From Panacagrimonas sp. (GTDB taxonomy: Bacteria > Pseudomonadota > Gammaproteobacteria > Nevskiales > Nevskiaceae), in contig JBQTIX010000044.1 of assembly GCA_052387695.1 (NCBI GenBank), forward strand, positions 54,620-118,619: a stretch of 64,000 nucleotides of DNA. The letters are read 5' to 3'. Position 1 is the stretch's first letter. The number at the start of each line of letters is the position of its first letter. Of the stretch, positions 4,901 through 64,000 are shown piece by piece. Both the position numbers and the translations under genes were made by a program. The notes under the pieces were generated by a model, which had not been told where the DNA came from, searched no databases, and worked only from the letters and a program-made list of their open reading frames with translations.

Positions 4901-5379
4901 CGGAAATGCTCGACGAGGGCCGGCGCGTGCTGTTGTTCTCGCAATTCACCTCGATGCTGGCCCTGATCGAAGAAGAGTTGAAGGCGCGCGGCATCGCCTA
5001 CCTGAAACTCACCGGCGACACCAAGGACCGACAGAGCCTGGTGGATCGCTTTCAGAAGCAGGAAGTGCCGTTGTTCCTGATCAGCCTCAAGGCCGGCGGC
5101 GTGGGCCTCAACCTCACCGCCGCCGACACCGTGATCCACTACGACCCCTGGTGGAATCCCGCCGTCGAGAACCAGGCTACGGACCGTGCGCACCGCATCG
5201 GCCAGGACAAGCCGGTGTTCGTCTACAAGCTCTACACGGAGAACACGGTCGAAGAGAAGATCGCCGCGCTTCAGGCGGTCAAGCGCGAACTGGCAGATGC
5301 GCTGTTTGGAGAGGGCACCGCCGGCACGATCAAGCTCGACGGCGAGACACTGGCGAAGCTGTTCGATCCGCTGGCCTGA
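1993..5379 (+). CDS. SNF2-family DNA/RNA helicase with N-terminal SWIM zinc finger
   Basis: N-terminus has SWIM-like CxCxnCxH (CRITW...[15 protein letters not shown]). C-terminal half has SNF2 motifs I ([14 protein letters not shown]) and II ([11 protein letters not shown]), plus helicase C ([47 protein letters not shown]). The track start is TTG at 1993, overlapping the pgk stop; the true start may be the ATG at ~2068 (MDYARRGQ). Confidence 0.9.
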
Positions 5380-53233: not shown

Positions 53234-53513
53234 AGCTCGATGCCTCTCCTGTTGAGGTACTGATTTAGGAATATCCACTCGGCGAACGGACTCCCCCGAT
53301 GGTTCACCGACCCTTCCCGCCATTTGGAGCCGGACCTTGAGATGGCCGACCCTTCACTTGCAGCGCGATGCCGGGCAAGCTCCGCGCGCTCCGACTGGCC
53401 TTAGCAAACACCATGCCGTTGGCCGTCAATGTGTTAGCAACCCACGCGACAAAAGATCAAAAGACCTTGACCGGATATAGCTGGGGTCAGGCTTCGGACC
53501 AGGAGCCCGGCAG

Positions 53514-54029
53514 TCAGACTCCACTGCTCTTGAGCATGGCCTCAACCGCGGCCTTGATCTCGTCGTCCGACAGGTCCGGGTTGCCGCCGCGTGCCGGCAT
53601 GGAATTCTTGCCCTTGATCGCAGACACGACCAGCCCATCCACTCCGCCGACCGCCGAAGCACGCGCAGACCATGCGGCACCGTCGCCGCTCTTCGGTGCG
53701 CCGAGCACGCCCGCCATGTGGCAGGCATTGCAGGCATTGGCGAGAACCTGTTCCGCTGTGTACGGCGCGCGGGCGGTCTTGGTGACCGCCACTTTCACCA
53801 GTGCGGCGGGGTCGGTGACGACGCGGGCCACCGGTTTGATGCGCTCTTCGAGCTTGACCAGGGCCTCGGGATCGGCGCCCTTGTCCGGAATGACGATCCG
53901 GGCGGCCACGATGCAGATGAAGAAGATCGCACCCAGCGCTGCGAGCACCAAGCCGAAATTGACGAAGAAAACCTGGTCGTGGTTCTTGTGTTCCAAGCGG
54001 AAGCCCCCTTTTACAACGACGTAAAACAT
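53514..54029 (-). CDS. Cytochrome c5-family c-type cytochrome, membrane-anchored
   Basis: N-terminal TM helix, haem-binding CNACHMAG and distal Met region (GKNSMPARGG). The ORF 53514-54299 upstream part is antisense to tRNA-Arg, so start set at ATG 54029. Confidence 0.75.
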   Translation of the reverse strand: MFYVVVKGGFRLEHKNHDQVFFVNFGLVLAALGAIFFICIVAARIVIPDKGADPEALVKLEERIKPVARVVTDPAALVKVAVTKTARAPYTAEQVLANACNACHMAGVLGAPKSGDGAAWSARASAVGGVDGLVVSAIKGKNSMPARGGNPDLSDDEIKAAVEAMLKSSGV

Positions 54030-54129
54030 CCCTTGCGACGCCCGCGAAGTATACCCGCTGGCATGCTTCGGTCTGCAACGCCCACCGAGACTGTGTAAGG
54101 CTCGCGGTGCGGCTACATTCTGATCGACA

Positions 54130-54190
54130 CGCCCGCAACTCAACTGGGTAGAGTACTGCCCTCCGAAGGCAATCGTCAGACGATTTCCCT
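54130..54190 (+). pseudogene. Partial tRNA-Arg-like copy (D-arm + anticodon arm with CCG anticodon) directly upstream of the intact tRNA-Arg(CCG)
   Basis: 54139-54171 (CTCAACTGGGTAGAGTACTGCCCTCCGAAGGCA) matches the intact gene's D/anticodon arms almost exactly. Acceptor and T arms are absent or replaced by an unrelated hairpin. Confidence 0.45.
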
Positions 54191-54212
54191 GCTGTAGAAT
54201 CAGCGCCCACAA

Positions 54213-54289
54213 GCGCCTGTAGCTCAGCTGGATAGAGTACTGCCCTCCGAAGGCAGTGGTCGGACGTTCGAATCGTCTCAGGCGCACCA
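54213..54289 (+). tRNA. tRNA-Arg (anticodon CCG)
   Basis: GCGCCTGTAGCTCAGCTGGATAGAGTACTGCCCTCCGAAGGCAGTGGTCGGACGTTCGAATCGTCTCAGGCGCACCA: canonical cloverleaf, 7-bp acceptor stem, encoded CCA. Confidence 0.9.
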
Positions 54290-54316
54290 AATCAAGCACT
54301 TAGGCCACTTTCGCCG

Positions 54317-54490
54317 GTGCCCAAGCCTCGCGGTGTCCATGTAGGGCAAAGGTCTTTCGAGCCCTCCGCATTTCTCCGTGCCCAAACGAGGGCGCTGGTC
54401 GCGGTGCCCGTCCGGTGCCCAAATCGTGCCCACGCGGTGCCCAAATCGGGTTGGCCTTCGCGCCAAATGACGACTGCTCACCCGTGCCCA
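54317..54490. promoter_or_regulatory. Array of 7 direct repeats of GTGCCCA(A); four consecutive copies phased at exactly 11 bp (54404, 54415, 54426, 54437)
   Basis: Read directly. Lies between tRNA-Arg (+) and the 3' end of the HEPN-like gene (-). Confidence 0.5.
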
Positions 54491-54565
54491 AAGCTGGGCG
54501 AAAAACATCCGTAGGGCGAACCGGCAATCGCTCGCCGAACGCCACGAGGCGCGGGTTGCGGCCCG

Positions 54566-55222
54566 TCACACGACCGGGAACGCGATGCCGCCGTAGTCGA
54601 CCTCCGGGTGTTCGAGCATTAGCTCAAGGGTGATGGGCACCAGGTCGCCGAGCAGGGATGCTCCATCGCCGACCTGCTGCCGATTGACGCGCCCGTTCCA
54701 GGTCGCGCCCCCGTGGACCAGCTGATTGCGCAGGACGTATAGCCGGTCGAATACGATCCCCAGTACCACCAGCGTGTCCTGGCCCATGACCGAGCGCAGC
54801 GCAGCCTTCTGGCCGGCGGTGAACTGCTGCTTCCAGGCATCGCTGCTGTCGTGCTCGCGCAGCGCGCGCCAGAAAGGTTCGAAGACGAACCGATTGTCGA
54901 TGAGCACGCGCACCGGCCCGGTGAACTTCTCGAAGATCAGCCGGTGCAGCCGCTGCTCCGAATCCACGGAGAGCAGCCGCGCCAAGAACTGCCTCAGCAG
55001 TTCGCGTTCCGTCTGCTCGAATCCAAACGCTTGCGCATAGGCGGCGTTGAAGGCGATCCACAGGAAGATGAACCTTGCGTCGAGGTCCTCCGCTTCGGCC
55101 TCGGCGCGACGCAGCCAGGAGACGGCGCGATGGATACGAATGCGCGTGTCCTGGTCGTAGCTCGCCTCGCGATCCTTGAGTTTCGCCTTCAGCGCATCGG
55201 CCTGTGCTTGCATTGCGGACAT
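54566..55222 (-). CDS. HEPN-like protein (putative RNase / abortive-infection-type toxin), 218 aa
   Basis: C-terminal LYVLRNQLVHGGATW contains the HEPN Rx4-6H motif in its common RNxxxHG form; otherwise all-alpha composition. Family not assignable from sequence alone. Confidence 0.5.
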   Translation of the reverse strand: MSAMQAQADALKAKLKDREASYDQDTRIRIHRAVSWLRRAEAEAEDLDARFIFLWIAFNAAYAQAFGFEQTERELLRQFLARLLSVDSEQRLHRLIFEKFTGPVRVLIDNRFVFEPFWRALREHDSSDAWKQQFTAGQKAALRSVMGQDTLVVLGIVFDRLYVLRNQLVHGGATWNGRVNRQQVGDGASLLGDLVPITLELMLEHPEVDYGGIAFPVV

Positions 55223-55435
55223 GGGGCGTGAGCGGTAGTGGCGGTTCCCTACTGTGATGGACGAATTTCGTAGATCGCAAGTCCTTGGTTTTGGGGTGCT
55301 CGCGACGACAGGGTCATGGCCTAAACGCTCGGGGAGTCAACGGCTTCCTCTGTTCGGGAGGCTCTAGCGGGCGCAAACTCGCACCGAGAGGGCCATGGCA
55401 GAAGTGCCGCGCCGTGATAACAGAACGCCAAGGGG

Positions 55436-56737
55436 ATGTGGGTGAACTTAGCCGAGCAAAAGAAGAACTTTGTGACAGAACAACTGTTGGCGGCCTATAA
55501 GAAACCTGTGCCGGCGATCGCGGAAATAGCGGGTTTTGAACTGTCGGTCGACGAGGAAAGATTTCCGGCGGTCGTGCAGGAAACCTCCTATCGGGCGTTC
55601 GCCCCGGCGAACGTCGGTGTCCACCTTCCGCGGTTTCAGGCGCTGGCCGAACGTTTGGCGTCTGAGCGCCCAGCCGCCGTTCGGGCGCTGATCGAGGAGG
55701 AAATCGAATGGGCCGCCGGCATCGAATCTGGATTTGTCCCCGAACTCCGCCCCCGCTCGCTGCGGCGATATCGCGCCGCCTTATCGGTCCTAGTCGACCT
55801 GCTGGGCCAGAACTGGGTCTATCGATTCCGTGATCACCAACTGGAGATGGCGCCTCCCGACTTCACCGAGGCATCCAGTTCGCCAGAAGGTGTCGCGAAG
55901 CAGAAGCGGCAAATCAGGCTGGCAATGAAGACGGAGAGGCTGGCGCAACTGCAGCCCGAATCTGTTCGTCGATTCATTTTTGAAATGGAGGCCTCCAGAT
56001 CCCACCACGGGAAGCCCGAATGCTCAATCCTGGACTTGGTCGCCGACGGCAGCGCCTTGATCGACGACCTGACCGCCGCCAAGGCCGCTCTGGATGCTGG
56101 CAACGCAGAGCCGTTTCTAAACGTCGTTCAGCCCTATCTTCAGCTCGCGCAAGAGGATGATCGCTGCCCCGAGACCGGCCTGCGTCTGATCGATATTTGG
56201 CGTTATTTCCGCTATTTCTGGTCGCTGCCGTACTTCAGCACGCCAGGCCGAAACCTGTTCTATCTGGTCCGAGATCGGGCCCGCCCATTTCACCCTATCA
56301 TCGGCATCGCAGCTCTCGGCAACTTGATCGTACGTTTAGCAGATCGGGAGCGATTCCTGGGTTGGGACGTGGAGGGCATCCAGGCGTCTGTCGACGCCGC
56401 CCCTGATCCAGCCGAGCGGCAGACGCTTTTGGAACATCTGTATCGGCACTACTTGCGACAACTCGAAGTCGATATTGCCTCGCTGGACCCCAAGGGGATT
56501 GTGACGGCGGCCGAACTTGCGGCACCGACCATGGATCTTGTCCAGCGGCTCCTGTCAGATGCCCGCGAGAGTGCTTACCGAAGCGTCCGACGTACGTCGT
56601 CGGTCGTCGGTCGTCATAGCCTCTGGGGCTGTGTCGCGACCGATGACGCAAAGGCAGACGTCCTCGTCATCGGCGGCCGCACGTGCTTGGGCAAGCGAGA
56701 GGCGAATTGGCGTACCTTCGGTTCCGGCTTGGTATGA
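55436..56737 (+). CDS. Hypothetical protein (433 aa); central region RLIDIWRYFRYFWSLPYFSTPGRNLFYLVRDRARPFHPIIGIAALGN. Possibly DUF4338-like, but this is a recollection, not a verified match.
   Basis: Divergent from the HEPN-like gene. C-terminal ~60 codons overlap the convergent gene 56555-58216, so the true 3' end or frame is uncertain. Confidence 0.45.
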   Translation: MWVNLAEQKKNFVTEQLLAAYKKPVPAIAEIAGFELSVDEERFPAVVQETSYRAFAPANVGVHLPRFQALAERLASERPAAVRALIEEEIEWAAGIESGFVPELRPRSLRRYRAALSVLVDLLGQNWVYRFRDHQLEMAPPDFTEASSSPEGVAKQKRQIRLAMKTERLAQLQPESVRRFIFEMEASRSHHGKPECSILDLVADGSALIDDLTAAKAALDAGNAEPFLNVVQPYLQLAQEDDRCPETGLRLIDIWRYFRYFWSLPYFSTPGRNLFYLVRDRARPFHPIIGIAALGNLIVRLADRERFLGWDVEGIQASVDAAPDPAERQTLLEHLYRHYLRQLEVDIASLDPKGIVTAAELAAPTMDLVQRLLSDARESAYRSVRRTSSVVGRHSLWGCVATDDAKADVLVIGGRTCLGKREANWRTFGSGLV

Positions 56738-58216
56738 CTTCACCTCGATGCGCATCGACCACGCGCTGAAACGATCGCGCAGTTCAAAATCGTAGGTGCC
56801 CGTCCCTTGGTACCGGAGATCCGCGCCCCCGGGTTCGCCGGACTGCACGACGATCCCGGTCTCGAAGAGGGCGTCCGCGAACGCCTTTTCCGCCAGTTGT
56901 CCGATTTTTAGCAGCCGTCTGAAGTCGGCTTGCTCCTGGGCGATTGCCTCCGCATGGCTCAGTCCGGCAGCCAATGAAGTCGGGTCCGCTGCGAGTTTTC
57001 GCACCCGCGCCATGTCGACGCCTGATCGACGGATTTCCAGGTACTCGCGGCACCCCTCGCGATCGCCAGAAAGCTCCAAAAGGTCTTCGGTGCACGAGCC
57101 GGTCAGCAGCAGCAGGTGAGTGCGGCACTCGGTGGACATCAACGCCTGCGAGAGTTTGGCGTTGTCGGCCTTCCATTTCTGAAGACGAATCAGCGCGTCG
57201 CGATGGAGCTCTGCGTGGAGGTGCTTGATCTGCAGGACCGCGTCGCTCAGCTGACGCCCCAGGTCGACTAGGGTGAGCCGTCCCGGGAGGGGTAGGTCGA
57301 CGCCAAGCGGCATCAGGCTTGCCATCCAATCCATGGCGGGATCGAGTTCGTGGAGGTTCTCGAATATCTCCGTGCCGACGTCGTGCTCTTGCCCTCCGTC
57401 AAACGCACGCATTTCGTAGGCCGCTTTGAAGTCTCCTCGGCGATTAGGAATCACCTTTCGCTCGCCGATCGCGACTAGTCCGAGATGCCGAAGGCAGCGC
57501 CCGAGCCACTGCTCGGCCTGCTCTGCGGAAAGTCTGAGATGGGCTGCAAGAGCCGCGACCATGCCGGTCCGTTCGATGGTTTTGAGAATTGCTTCAAGAG
57601 CCCAACTCATGGCGGGATCGAAGTCGAACCCCTTTAGACTCGCGATGACGAAAGTCTCCCCCGGGCCGCGGGAGAGATCGTTGAGGAACGATGCGTGTCC
57701 CTGGCGACGTTCGTCGGCCGGAACGCTTGGCTCGACGAGGCCGAGGATCTTCGAGATCACGCGTGCCATCGCGTTGGCGTCCTTCCCGAACTTACCTTGC
57801 CGGATGCGCCTGTTCACGTCATCTGACGCGTCGTACAGCTTGAGCTCGTTCAGTGGTTCGGAAAGCTGCATGCCTTGATGGATCAGCAACGTCCGCCAGT
57901 CGGCGCCGACGGCGTGCAGAATGTCGAGCACAGGCTCCCCGATTGGACTCGTAGCCGATTCCTGGGCCAACTCGTGCCGGGCCTTGAGGACGCCGAAGCG
58001 ATTCGGGATCACCGCAAAACCTCGCGAACGGTCGAGCAGACCACCGAGGCTGTATCGAGACAGTAGGCCACAGAGCGCGCTGCACCATGCCAGCTTCTCT
58101 GTGTCGCCACCTGCAACTGGCATTGCGGCGAGGGTTCCGCATTTGGTCACATCGGCAAGCATATCCTCCGGTTCGAACCGCATCCCGGGCAGGCCCCAGC
58201 CGGCTTCGATGAGCAT
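56555..58216 (-). CDS. Large hypothetical protein with a DUF3883-like C-terminal domain (restriction-endonuclease-like fold)
   Basis: C-terminus …GTGTYDFELRDRFSAWSMRIEVKSYQAGTEGTPIRLSLAQARAAADDEDVCLCVI resembles the DUF3883 pattern (GYDfe…IEVK…S..E). The track ORF extends to 58528, but residues 1-58 are encoded by the tandem-repeat region, so ATG 58216 (MLIEAGWGLPG) is proposed. Confidence 0.5.
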   Translation of the reverse strand: MLIEAGWGLPGMRFEPEDMLADVTKCGTLAAMPVAGGDTEKLAWCSALCGLLSRYSLGGLLDRSRGFAVIPNRFGVLKARHELAQESATSPIGEPVLDILHAVGADWRTLLIHQGMQLSEPLNELKLYDASDDVNRRIRQGKFGKDANAMARVISKILGLVEPSVPADERRQGHASFLNDLSRGPGETFVIASLKGFDFDPAMSWALEAILKTIERTGMVAALAAHLRLSAEQAEQWLGRCLRHLGLVAIGERKVIPNRRGDFKAAYEMRAFDGGQEHDVGTEIFENLHELDPAMDWMASLMPLGVDLPLPGRLTLVDLGRQLSDAVLQIKHLHAELHRDALIRLQKWKADNAKLSQALMSTECRTHLLLLTGSCTEDLLELSGDREGCREYLEIRRSGVDMARVRKLAADPTSLAAGLSHAEAIAQEQADFRRLLKIGQLAEKAFADALFETGIVVQSGEPGGADLRYQGTGTYDFELRDRFSAWSMRIEVKSYQAGTEGTPIRLSLAQARAAADDEDVCLCVIGRDTAPEAMTTDDRRRTSDASVSTLAGI

Positions 58217-58462
58217 CCCCCATTTCGCGTTGAGCTCCGGAAGGGGAACGACGTCGAGCCCCAGGTAATCGGCGGCGAGGGCGTGAAACTCCTTCGAGGC
58301 CGGTTCTGTGCGGTTGTCCGCGTGTTTTATGCAGGGCACGGGACAGTGCTGGCATGGGTTACTCCGAATCTGGCTTAAGGGGCATTCCGAATTTGTGTGC
58401 TGGCATGAAGAGATCGAATCCGGACCCCGCAGGCCGCGGGGTCCGGACTCGTTGTCGGGCTT

Positions 58463-58830
58463 ACCGACAGCGGTCATACCGCCTCGTGGTGTACGCCACG
58501 CCATGGACTCGAAGGTGTCCGCCGCCAAGTGCGGGTCCGGATTCAGCCGGTGCCGGGAGTACCGGCGGCGGTCTTACCGCCTCGTGGTATTCGCCACGCG
58601 TAGACTCGAACGAGTCCTAAACCGCCAAGTGCGGGGTCCGGATTCAACCGGTGCCGGGGATACCGGCGGCGGTCATACCGCCTCGTGGTGTATGCCACGC
58701 CAGAGACTCGAATCGAGTCCGCTTCCGCTCGTCGCGGGCCCGGGGCTGGCCCGGGGCTGGCCCAGGGCCGGGATTGCCAGCAGCGGTTTTTCTCCGCCTC
58801 GTGGTGGTGCCACGCCTGCCCAGTGCGTAG
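58463..58830. repeat. About 3.5 tandem copies of a ~100-bp highly structured unit (period 98, 101, 116 bp), each containing several perfect hairpins (e.g. GGCGG…CCGCC, CGTGGtgtacgCCACG, ACTCgaacGAGT, CCGGattcaaCCGG)
   Basis: Read directly. An 11-bp-stem hairpin (CCGGACCCCGCaggccGCGGGGTCCGG) lies just upstream at ~58414-58440. One frame spuriously encodes AWRTPRGGMTAAGIPGTG three times. Confidence 0.7.
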
Positions 58831-59193
58831 GGCATCGCCAGATCGAATTGCAAATCGGTGATGTTCGTTTGTACTCGCCGGCACGGACTCCAAGATGCGG
58901 TCAAACGTTGTAAGCGTTTTCCTCAGAGGTACTTGCGACGATGCTGCCATCAGCTGTCGTTAGATCGCGAAGAGGCGCGGAGATATCGCGCACCGTTCCT
59001 GGCGTCCCGTTGCCGGTGCTGCCGGTGCTGCTGATGCGCACGCGGTTACGCGCGAAGATCTCCGCAAGCACATCCGGTTCATCAGGGATCTGGTCGCGGC
59101 GACCGACCTTTACTTGGCCGCAACGATGTAGCGGCGCGTGGCCGGCAAGCGCGTAACCGCCTCCCGGGTGCCGAGGCGGCCAATATGCAGAGG

Positions 59194-59224
59194 AGACACC
59201 GCGGGCCTGAGCCCGCGGTGTCTC
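59194..59224 (-). terminator. Perfect 14-bp-stem hairpin GAGACACCGCGGGC-ctga-GCCCGCGGTGTCTC overlapping the rtcB stop codon (terminator-like; no U-run)
   Basis: Read directly. Confidence 0.4.
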
Positions 59225-60398
59225 ATCCCTTCACGCACATCACCTGCTTGAGCGTATGCACGACCTCCACGAGGTCGGACTGGTTGGCCATCACGGCGTC
59301 GATGTCCTTGTAGGCCCCGGGGATCTCGTCCAGCACCCCGCCGTCCTTGCGGCACTCCACGCCCTCCGTCTGGCGCTTCAGGTCCTCCACCGTGAAGTGG
59401 CGGTTGGCCTCGTTGCGCGACATCTTGCGACCCGCGCCGTGGGCACACGAGCACAGCGATTCCGGATCGCCCTTGCCGCGCACGATGTAGCTGCGCGCAC
59501 CCATGCTGCCCGGAATGATGCCGAGGTCGCCCGCGCCGGCACGGATTGCACCCTTGCGGGTCACCCACACGTCCGCGCCGTAGTGATGCTCGCGCGCCAC
59601 ATAATTGTGGTGGCAGTTGATCGCCTCCTGCGTCGGCGTGAACGGCGGCAGGTGACGCGCCAGTGCCGTGAGCACCAGCGTCATCATCGCGCGACGGTTC
59701 TCCATGGCGTAGTCCTGCGCCCAGCCCACGGCTTCCAGGTAGTCGTCGAACAGCTCGCTGCCCTCCACGAGGTAGGCGAGGTCCCGATCCGGGAGCTGGA
59801 TTAAGTGCCGCTCCATCTCCTTGCGCGCCGACTCGATGAAGAACTGCCCGATGCGGTTGCCGATGCCGCGCGAACCCGAGTGCAGCATCACCCACACGTC
59901 GTCGTTCTCATCGAGACACAGCTCGATGAAGTGATTCCCGCCGCCAAGCGATCCCATCTGCCCCTGCCAGTCGGCCTTGAGCTTGGGGTACTTTGCCTGG
60001 ATGGTCTCGAGGCCCGGCGCGATGCGCTCCAGCGCATCAACCTGCCAGCGGGCATCCTTGTGCGCGCCCATGCCCACCGGCACATCGCGCTCGATCTGGG
60101 AACGAATCGTCTTGAGGCTGTCCGGCAGCGCCGAGGCCTTCAGCGACAGGCGTACCGCATTCATGCCGCAGCCGATGTCCACTCCGACCGCGGCCGGGAT
60201 GATCGCGCCCTTCGTGGGGATCACGGAGCCCACGGTTGCGCCGATACCCAGATGCACATCGGGCATGGCCGCCACATGGTGGTGAATGAACGGCAGGCTC
60301 GCGATGTTCGCAAGCTGCGCCTGCGCGTTGTCGGCGATATCGTCGGTGTAGATCTTCACGGGCACCTTGCCCTGTGACAGAACCTTTCGGATTGGCAT
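59223..60398 (-). CDS. rtcB: RNA-splicing ligase RtcB (3'-phosphate/5'-OH RNA ligase)
   Basis: 391 aa with RtcB hallmarks: metal/GMP-binding His/Cys/Asp residues (…DIGCGMNAV…, GGGNHFIEL, MLHSGSRGIGN, HNYV…, CSCAHGAGR). Confidence 0.9.
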   Translation of the reverse strand: MPIRKVLSQGKVPVKIYTDDIADNAQAQLANIASLPFIHHHVAAMPDVHLGIGATVGSVIPTKGAIIPAAVGVDIGCGMNAVRLSLKASALPDSLKTIRSQIERDVPVGMGAHKDARWQVDALERIAPGLETIQAKYPKLKADWQGQMGSLGGGNHFIELCLDENDDVWVMLHSGSRGIGNRIGQFFIESARKEMERHLIQLPDRDLAYLVEGSELFDDYLEAVGWAQDYAMENRRAMMTLVLTALARHLPPFTPTQEAINCHHNYVAREHHYGADVWVTRKGAIRAGAGDLGIIPGSMGARSYIVRGKGDPESLCSCAHGAGRKMSRNEANRHFTVEDLKRQTEGVECRKDGGVLDEIPGAYKDIDAVMANQSDLVEVVHTLKQVMCVKG

Positions 60399-61932: not shown

Positions 61933-62005
61933 CGAAGTGGAGCGGGAGTCGAACCCGCGACAGGCGCATTACGAATACGCTGCTCTACCCTCTGAGCTAT
62001 CCAGT
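61933..62005 (-). tRNA. tRNA-Thr(CGT)-like gene, probably a degenerate or remnant copy
   Basis: Minus strand reads CACTGGA-TA-GCTCAGAGGGTAGAGC-A-GCGTATTCGTAATGCGC-CTGTC-GCGGGTTCGACTCCCGC-TCCACTT-C. D, anticodon (CGT) and T arms are canonical, but the acceptor stem has 2 mismatches and no CCA. Confidence 0.45.
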
Positions 62006-62218
62006 GGTGAAAGGGCATCAGCCCTTCCGAGGCATCGGCCGTCGTGCGTCCACGGCATACGCACCGGCAATGCCGGGCGCACCGGACGGGTGGGACATCT
62101 CCCGAACCCGCGCCGCTGTGAACCGCCGTACAGATCGATGCCGATTGGCGTCTCGTGGGAAACGCCAATTCATGGGGCGGGCTGCGACATCAACTCCGCC
62201 GAATCTCGAACTCCTTCG

Positions 62219-63410: not shown

Positions 63411-63484
63411 GCAAGGCTGGCCTAGCGGTCGGGCTCCTGCCTTCCAAGCAGACGAGACGGGTTCGACTCCCGTGCCTTGCTCCA
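63411..63484 (+). tRNA. tRNA-Gly (anticodon TCC)
   Basis: GCAAGGC…CTGCcttCCAaGCAG…ACGGGTTCGACTCCCGTGCCTTGCTCCA; anticodon loop CTTCCAA with U33/A37; discriminator U + CCA. Confidence 0.8.
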
Positions 63485-63488
63485 ATTC

Positions 63489-63576
63489 GGATGGTTCGCA
63501 TAGCGGCCATTGCACCTGGCTGTAAACCAGGCGACCCCTCGGGTCTTCCAAGGTTCGAGTCCTTGACCATCCACCA
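63489..63576 (+). tRNA. tRNA-Tyr (anticodon GTA), long variable arm
   Basis: GGATGGT…CTGGCTGTAAACCAG + extra arm GCGACCCCTCGGGTC + T-arm GGTTCGAGTCC + CCATCCACCA. Confidence 0.85.
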
Positions 63577-63605
63577 GTACGCGTTCTTCAGTATTCAATT
63601 TTTAT

Positions 63606-63681
63606 GGTGGCCGTAGCTCAACGGCAGAGCCCCTGGTTGTGAGCCAGGAGGTCGCGGGGTCAGCACCCGTCGGTCACCCCA
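63606..63681 (+). tRNA. tRNA-His (anticodon GTG) with G-1 / C73
   Basis: G-GTGGCCG-TA-GCTCAACGGCAGAGC-C-CCTGGTTGTGAGCCAGG…CGGTCAC-C-CCA. The extra 5' G pairing with discriminator C is the His identity element. T-loop reads GTCAGCA (non-canonical), so confidence is reduced. Confidence 0.7.
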
Positions 63682-63686
63682 ACATC

Positions 63687-63829
63687 GGGTCGTTCGTCCA
63701 AGGGCAGGACCCCGGACTCTTTGATTCGGCGAAGCCGGATCAAAGCAAAACCGTGCTCTGTGTTGTTGAAGCGGCTGCACCGCTTCAACAATGCGGCCGA
63801 TCTCGGTTCAAGTCCGAGGCGACCCACCA
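63687..63829 (+). ncRNA. 143-nt tRNA-like gene with a ~72-nt insertion in the variable region: canonical acceptor stem (GGGTCGT/GCGACCC), D-arm, T-arm (CTCGGTTCAAGTCCGAG) and CCA, but an 8-nt anticodon-like loop
   Basis: Read directly. The extra region contains perfect hairpins (CTTTGAT…ATCAAAG; TTGTTGAAGCGGctgcaCCGCTTCAACAA). Position inside a tRNA operon. Confidence 0.45.
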
Positions 63830-63832
63830 AAT

Positions 63833-63917
63833 GCCGACGTGGTGAAACGGAATACACGCGACGCTCAGAACGTCGTGCCCTCAGGGCTTGCGAGTTCAAG
63901 TCTCGCCGTCGGTACCA
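63833..63917 (+). tRNA. tRNA-Leu (anticodon CAG), long variable arm
   Basis: GCCGACG…CGACGctCAGaaCGTCG + extra arm TGCCCTCAGGGCTTG + T-arm GCGAGTTCAAGTCTCGC + CGTCGGTACCA. Confidence 0.85.
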
Positions 63918-63922
63918 ACTCC

Positions 63923-64000
63923 ACCCCCGTAGCTCAGCGGAACCAGAGCGTCCGCTTACGAAGCGGAAAGTCGGAGGTTCAAATCCTCCCGGGGGTACCA
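63923..64000 (+). tRNA. tRNA-Arg (anticodon ACG)
   Basis: ACCCCCG-TA-GCTCAGCGGAACCAGAGC-G-TCCGCTTACGAAGCGGA-AAGTC-GGAGGTTCAAATCCTCC-CGGGGGT-A-CCA. Confidence 0.85.

Follow-up and report, generated by a model that had tools for sequence, protein, structure and literature searches.

Here, we examine a 64,000-nt stretch of a Panacagrimonas sp. genome (contig JBQTIX010000044.1, positions 54,620 to 118,619; hereafter the window), in which direct repeats of the heptamer GTGCCCA lie past the 3' end of a tRNA-Arg(CCG) gene. We read this array as the accessory-site arm of an attL-type attachment junction at the tRNA, probably left by a decayed genomic island that has lost its integrase. In relatives of the island, recombination is served by tyrosine integrases that have an N-terminal Arm-DNA-bind_2 domain (PF12167; IntBPP-1). 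We put the probability of this reading at about 75%. An earlier note on the window had proposed several roles for the repeats; among them, that of an integration site of the adjacent island is the sole one to have found support, as such arrays recur beside tRNA and integrase genes and around the cores of phage attachment (attP) sites.

The repeat array is a real, non-random feature. Exact copies of GTGCCCA start on the + strand at 54317 (28 nt past the end of the tRNA), 54378, 54415, 54426, 54437 and 54484, and are joined on the same strand by the variant words GTGTCCA (from 54333) and GTGCCCG (from 54404). The shorter word GTGCCC is thus present seven times within the 174 bp between 54317 and 54490 (six GTGCCCA and one GTGCCCG), and four of the starts (54404, 54415, 54426 and 54437, the GTGCCCG variant being the first) follow one another in exact 11-bp steps, separated by spacers that are unlike one another. 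The earlier description of seven copies in 175 bp, four of them at 11 bp, was therefore accurate, one of the seven being the variant, and the array does lie between convergent genes (the tRNA on the + strand and an open reading frame (ORF) at 54566-55222 on the - strand). Over the entire window GTGCCCA occurs 21 times against 9.8 +/- 3.0 expected, a count reached in none of 100 shuffles; the 15 copies outside the cluster are scattered over both strands and exceed the expectation, but stay inside the shuffle range (maximum 18). First-order Markov simulations (300 runs) placed at most two copies in any 175-nt span, against six observed, and never gave a phased 11-bp triple, the Poisson probability of at least six copies in such a span being ~1e-13. 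The refuting circumstance named by the earlier note, a motif common by composition, was checked within the window and can be set aside, because no shuffle or simulation attains the observed density.

The repeats belong to a larger arrangement (Table 1) that the window has in common with related loci (designated by L and a number). Its shared order runs from a 5' half tRNA to a full tRNA, a consensus site for the integration host factor (IHF), three to four phased copies, an AAATGAC box and a fifth copy. A spacer of ~36 nt ends in the box, the next GTGCCC stands 80 nt past the first phased copy, and the box is also found in L123, L234, L138, L142, L148, L153, L186, L184 and L170. A nhmmer model built from 11 other loci matches the window at 54404-54494 (E=1.6e-13), and a model restricted to the spacer, box and fifth copy has its best window match at 54452-54493 (E=0.015). 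The IHF consensus match of the window was equalled in 0 of 200 shuffles, and matches with at most one mismatch accompany 15 of 26 tRNA-adjacent arrays (13 on the + strand, 0-16 nt past the tRNA); in L184, GTGCCC is placed at the identical offset (+29) past the tRNA and an IHF-like site. A scan with Rfam (53500-59500, E<=1) returned the tRNA only, the array matching no covariance model.

Further evidence comes from the tRNA genes themselves. A complete tRNA-Arg(CCG) is the kind of gene that bears the recombination core in this element family, and upstream of it the window holds a partial copy, in which 54139-54171 match tRNA positions 11-43 at 94%. We read this partial copy as the probable remnant of a tRNA that was split by recombination in or near the anticodon loop. 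Similar 5' half-copies of tRNA-Arg(CCG) (positions 1 to ~43, ending at the anticodon stem) were recovered in L118, L123, L131, L184, L185 and L235, where they sit 92-117 nt upstream of the full tRNA, and with the window included the period is 84-117 nt; L131 has two of them with a 104-nt period, L144 shows the equivalent arrangement for tRNA-Arg(CCT), and in L114 and L159 an inverted 3' half takes the place of the 5' half-copy. Altogether, the combination of half tRNA, full tRNA and array was met in at least seven independent loci, which bears out the suggested link between the repeats and the partial tRNA-Arg copy. The acceptor stem of the complete tRNA in the window co-varies (CCTG/CAGG) and is unlike that of the half-copy (CCCG), and boxes of the TAGAAT type, as in the promoter-like site preceding the complete tRNA, occur at the equivalent position in L114, L128 and L159. 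A relative lacking the array (L091, cytochrome c5 77% identical) has the same divergent cytochrome c5/tRNA-Arg(CCG) arrangement; past its tRNA come a simple terminator hairpin and then a gene for isocitrate dehydrogenase, and it has neither array nor partial tRNA. The two sequences part ways directly past the tRNA 3' end, and since L091 has neither feature, the array and the half-tRNA are additions at the window locus.

Metagenome contigs were scanned for the phased triple, which yielded more than 120 matches, and the following counts were taken from the first 80 loci. Spacers differed in 48 of these, and in the other 32 the first two were identical. Nearly all of the latter are plain tandem satellites, among which a tRNA or integrase feature was seen in L129 only (a four-copy tRNA-Met array). 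Half of the differing-spacer loci (24/48) have a tRNA on the same strand within 300 nt upstream of the array, and its identity was tRNA-Arg(CCG) in ten, tRNA-Met(CAT) in another ten and something else in four. In ten loci (L116, L117, L123, L124, L129, L133, L151, L157, L170 and L179) an integrase ORF starts ~440-830 nt past the array and runs in the same direction. The three integrases submitted to Pfam all combined Phage_integrase with Arm-DNA-bind_2 (PF12167, E 1e-18 to 1e-23), the rest of the ten having been found by a hidden Markov model (HMM) of the Arm-DNA-bind_2-type N-terminal domain; this domain is among the best-conserved parts of the protein, with 16 invariant columns in the first 36 residues. 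Integrases with a PF12167-type N-terminal domain constitute the IntBPP-1 subgroup (Smyshlyaev et al. 2021, PMC8138268). The loci examined closely (L117, L123 and L229-L235) further share an xre-type helix-turn-helix gene, which points back at the array or sits upstream of the integrase, and a small conserved ORF immediately upstream of the integrase (TYLTTDELAxRIKYD...HYIRPFGGRKILY) that has no match in Pfam or PDB. Signs of decay were also encountered: L181 has an integrase gene with an internal deletion directly past the array, and L128 (1-5000) is a 4.9-kb island without an integrase, with tRNA-Arg(CCG) and the array at one end; at the other, an IHF-like box is followed by a 16-nt repeat (4984-4999) of the anticodon loop and 3' stem, which makes the island a candidate cis-mobilizable element.

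Viral contigs were searched for the triple GTGCCCA-N4-GTGCCCA-N4-GTGCCCA (8 loci) and for the pair GTGCCCAAANNGTGCCCAC (15 loci). The GC content of these array loci spans 26-67% (26-72% when viral and metagenome contigs are taken together), and in 13 of the 18 viral loci examined an ORF resembling tyrosine integrases lies 5-235 nt from the array; a Phage_integrase domain was recognised in 9/9 of those submitted to Pfam. In L083, L097, L099, L101, L103, L107 and L108 arrays or pairs ~170-300 bp apart stand on both sides of a tRNA 3' fragment, which is the layout of an attP site. Two of them, L107 and L108, are the Gordonia phages Dardanus and Schmidt, in which the tRNA-like core matches the sequence annotated as AttP in Mycobacterium phage Angelica. 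We also observed GTGCCCA at 11-bp spacing flanking attP cores in L082/L086 (26% GC), as in L107, L108, L083, L097 and L103. Elsewhere, in L085 (4780-4900), GTGCCCAAAAC occurs within a run of 11-bp tandem units beside other short tandem repeats, in a region that looks origin-like. Because of L085 and the 32 satellite loci with identical spacers, the phasing of the heptamer alone is not diagnostic of an att arm.

A protein-first test, blind to the motif, took the opposite direction: six close relatives of the integrase were fetched from viral contigs with their upstream flanks. An array adjoins a tRNA-Val fragment in L234, a degenerate array adjoins a half and a full tRNA-Arg(CCG) in L235, and in L231 (2340-2380) a GGGCCCA-N4-GGGCCCA pair at 11 bp replaces GTGCCCA; in the remaining three no array was present in the flanking sequence examined. 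The L231 integrase departs from the family consensus in its N-terminal domain (F14Y, Q27Y), and its small upstream ORF deviates from the family as well. This locus could serve as a test case for a specificity swap. Among GenBank phages no close relative of the island-type integrase was found (best identity 29%).

The mechanism that we propose is in keeping with these layouts. Several integrase molecules would dock by their N-terminal domains on the phased direct repeats, along one face of the helix, and, through an IHF-type bend beside the tRNA, the same molecules would reach the crossover site within the tRNA gene with their catalytic domains, the outcome of the bent complex being integration or excision. 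From the co-occurrence of arrays and integrases, we infer that the reader of GTGCCCA is the N-terminal domain of the integrase and not an excision factor. The cooperative binding to one face of the DNA that the earlier note suggested would fit arm-type sites if it belonged to such a recombination complex instead of a transcriptional regulator. At the tRNA, the element may have split the resident gene in the anticodon loop, leaving the 5' half at 54130-54172, and may have brought with it a promoter, the complete tRNA-Arg(CCG) and the arm. Such a split-and-replace event is suggested by the differing acceptor stems, by the promoter-like site belonging to the complete tRNA and by one half-copy of L131, whose hybrid anticodon stem (ccgcc paired with ggcag) is what two tRNA alleles would produce by crossing over within the anticodon loop. 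The right-hand junction that should accompany it, a 3' half tRNA, was seen in none of the fetched flanks. In the window the site is probably an orphan, because the module of xre gene, small ORF and integrase is gone and a HEPN-like gene with truncated DruA and TmtA stands in its place; it would be a relic, or could at most serve an integrase encoded in another part of the genome.

Known recombination systems offer partial parallels. In the P' arm of lambda attP, the H' IHF site is followed by the contiguous arm-type sites P'1-P'2-P'3, which are read by the N-terminal domain of the integrase. The window resembles it in having a core, an IHF site and contiguous direct repeats about one helical turn apart, and differs in its word (GTGCCCA), in its larger number of copies (7-8), in their longer distance from the core (115-155 nt from the tRNA end) and in having no linked integrase. 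In mycobacteriophage L5, next to int, TGCAACTC pairs at 11-bp spacing, 225 bp apart, flank a tRNA-Gly-derived core; we take these pairs to be the experimentally mapped arm-type sites of Int. The L5 attP is like those of Dardanus and Schmidt and like the other viral GTGCCCA pairs, in that 11-bp direct-repeat pairs lie on both sides of a tRNA-derived core, but it has another word and another integrase lineage, whereas the window presents one side only, fused to a complete tRNA. Integrase-less islands flanked by att sites are known as cis-mobilizable elements (CIMEs). These, and decayed 'grounded' prophages, share with the window an att-type sequence by a tRNA without a recombinase, followed by cargo or defence genes; unlike in CIMEs, a second att site was not found in the window, and mobilisation in trans is thus not arguable for it. 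A parallel in target is KplE1 (CPS-53), whose attL at E. coli argW, a tRNA-Arg(CCG), combines integrase arm-type sites with closely spaced blocks for the recombination directionality factor (RDF) TorI (PMC2951348, where the roles of arm-type sites and IHF are also summarised). KplE1 and the window have the same target tRNA species and the same order of tRNA, attL and recombination genes; they differ in that the KplE1 attL overlaps the integrase promoter and uses GTTCG-like words, whereas in the window the array is flanked by the 3' ends of convergent genes and has no integrase.

Several observations weigh against the reading of the array as an integrase arm. Across the whole 64 kb, tblastn with five integrases and three HMMs detected no tyrosine integrase or integrase pseudogene, and a search of the window for a further repeat of the tRNA 3' part or the anticodon-loop core, such as an attR would contain, found none, so that the far boundary of the element is undefined there; the source contig continues past the window. 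Of the 28 metagenome arrays that are followed by 2 kb or more of sequence, 22 have no integrase of the PF12167 type within 2.5 kb downstream, hence an array may exist independently of a linked integrase, and orphan arrays are common. The integrases that do adjoin GTGCCCA come from several lineages (PF12167, weak PF14657, or no Pfam arm-domain match), and a profile comparison of the N-terminal domains of the island-type integrases with those of the integrases next to the viral attP cores gave no detectable similarity (hhalign probability 0.7%), which leaves it unestablished that one domain common to all of them reads the heptamer. In KplE1 attL the excision factor TorI, and not the integrase alone, binds blocks of repeats set close together (PMC2951348). 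Finally, searches of the literature for the heptamer in connection with integrases or attachment sites gave primers and unrelated uses only, with no description of arm sites. For the IntBPP-1 (DUF3596/PF12167) subgroup, likewise, they gave a classification paper only and no described arm sites.

The alternative nearest to our reading keeps the att-site arm but lets the heptamers dock an RDF (Xis/TorI-like) or a small helix-turn-helix protein of the island. In its favour, TorI binds closely spaced repeats in KplE1 attL, with five sites at argW that include a block of three 2 nt apart (PMC2951348), and it could draw on the conserved small ORF immediately 5' of int in intact relatives and on the variant-motif locus L231, which differs in this small protein as well as in the integrase N-terminal domain. 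The small ORF has, on the other hand, no Pfam family, actinophage attP sites carry GTGCCCA on either arm, arranged like the L5 repeats, and a tyrosine integrase is the one component seen beside most arrays that have a nearby recombination gene (other neighbours were not systematically compared). We consider an RDF-docking array unlikely, although worth keeping in view. Far less probable is an operator for a factor binding head-to-tail repeats and controlling the tRNA or its neighbours. The boxes of OmpR/PhoB-type regulators are bound head-to-tail in this manner (a 7-bp site and a 4-bp spacer), with which the 7+4 periodicity of the array agrees, and the arm sites of KplE1 also repress the integrase promoter (PMC2951348). 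The position of the array between convergent 3' ends disfavours such an operator: the only promoter-like site detected in 53900-54700 is upstream of the tRNA, and the xre-like gene of intact relatives has its 3' end directly beside the array. The motif moreover follows tRNAs of varied identity in hosts whose GC content ranges over 36-72%, as would be expected of a mobile element and not of a host regulon.

The phasing would also be accounted for if the adjacent island had iterons of a replication origin here, or a parS-like centromere, as short direct repeats spaced by about one helical turn are typical of plasmid iterons and parS sites, and the viral contig with tandem units in an origin-like region (L085) points the same way. 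What sets the array apart from these is that arrays of its kind are associated with tRNA genes and integrases, together with the lack of any Rep, ParA or ParB-like protein among the flanking ORFs and of an AT-rich unwinding region (GC is 0.56-0.70 across the locus); about half of the differing-spacer arrays, furthermore, are found just past a tRNA, and ten have an integrase a few hundred nt on. The iteron, centromere, partition or replication site envisaged by the earlier note was accordingly not borne out, and we hold it to be very improbable. That the copies cluster by chance or composition, or form a simple 11-bp microsatellite, is next to excluded by the differing spacers of the window, by simulations that do not come near its density and by the conserved flanking architecture, even if 32 of the 80 metagenome matches have identical first two spacers and are nearly all satellites.

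Table 1. Coordinates of the features at and around the tRNA-Arg(CCG) locus (positions in the window)
Feature	Position	Strand	Remarks
Cytochrome c5 gene	53514-53996	-	5' side of the tRNA; product 100% identical to a protein of a Panacagrimonas sp. metagenome-assembled genome
Partial copy of tRNA-Arg(CCG), 5' part through the anticodon arm	54130-54182	+	85% identity over 53 nt
Promoter-like site, TCGTCA-16 nt-TAGAAT	54173-54200	+	12 nt 5' of the complete tRNA; 1 found against 0.1 expected in shuffles
Complete tRNA-Arg(CCG)	54213-54289	+	Rfam tRNA, 64.6 bits
IHF consensus WATCAANNNNTTR (AATCAAGCACTTA)	54290-54302	+	Exact, 0 mismatches; abuts the tRNA 3' end; consensus match only
Dispersed copies	54317-54384	+	GTGCCCA 54317, GTGTCCA 54333, GTGCCCA 54378
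tRNA-like string gagccctccg	54359-54368	+	Weak evidence
Phased block, putative arm-type core sites	54404-54443	+	GTGCCCG, GTGCCCA, GTGCCCA, GTGCCCA at 11 bp
Spacer box aaatgacgactgctcaccc, consensus AAATGAC...	54465-54483	+	Directly 5' of the fifth copy
Fifth GTGCCCA	54484-54490	+	80 nt past the first phased copy; equal offset in tRNA-Met class loci
218-aa ORF with RNQLVH (Rx4H, HEPN-like) motif	54566-55222	-	Neighbour of the site, not part of it
Truncated DruA fragment (Druantia)	55436-56737	+	PADLOC E=1.3e-59, profile positions 60-322 of 675
Truncated TmtA fragment	56555-58528	-	E=3.9e-27, profile positions 418-979 of 1063

The genes beyond the array suggest what the island may have carried. 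The 218-aa ORF occupies the place that the regulatory and integrase genes of the island have in intact relatives, and its product has no match in Pfam, NCBIfam, PADLOC or PDB. Flanks of its homologues from 80 genomes contain no GTGCCCA array (four homologues adjoin other tRNAs), hence the array is independent of this gene. The protein has more than 550 relatives in Proteobacteria, Acidobacteriota and other phyla, and in L009, L017, L032 and L037 the stop codon of the homologue faces a different tRNA (Thr, Pro, Met and Phe) at ~60-100 nt. Further on, the ORFs of the DruA and TmtA fragments overlap at their 3' ends, third-position GC falls across 55.2-59.2 kb relative to the surrounding genes, and the region 55436-58528 has the look of a decayed defence island; in 49.8-61.8 kb, the tested ORFs matched Gcw_chp, DruA, TmtA, RtcB and SPFH only. 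A 25-nt repeat (80%) at 59084-59108 was considered as an att partner and dropped as chance, being without array or tRNA-like features. Between the TmtA fragment and rtcB (58410-58700) there are three units of ~100 bp, 69-90% identical, with GC-rich hairpins (e.g., GGGGTCCGGATTC / GAATCCGGACCCC), which look like repetitive extragenic palindromes or miniature inverted-repeat transposable elements. The window also contains a tRNA-Thr(CGT) on the - strand (61934-62006) and, at its end (63411-64000, + strand), a tight cluster of tRNA genes for Gly, Tyr, His, Leu and Arg(ACG).

A wider proposition, which we regard as tentative and more doubtful than not, is that GTGCCCA at 11-bp spacing forms a shared 'arm code' of tyrosine-integrase att sites, in use from Actinobacteria and hosts of 26% GC to Proteobacteria by integrases whose N-terminal domains are no longer recognisably similar. 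Within it, the tRNA-Arg(CCG) sub-family would split the resident tRNA at its anticodon loop and supply a promoter and a complete replacement, repeated hits would leave tandem 5' half-tRNAs, and arrays without an integrase would persist as docking pads open to elements arriving later.

For this genome, our reading places the left edge of the decayed defence island at tRNA-Arg(CCG) and suggests that the only intact copy of this tRNA seen here was imported by the island. A tRNA, an IHF box, three to four GTGCCCA at 11 bp, an AAATGAC box and a further copy, in this order, make a cheap signature by which the integration sites of IntBPP-1-type elements and the limits of their islands could be recognised even after loss of the integrase. 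The scar is of an ordinary type and the locus alone is modest. The question that it raises is why one heptamer serves integrase lineages that are unrelated at the sequence level, and it is this reuse across phyla, together with the signature of half and full tRNA, that we find most noteworthy.

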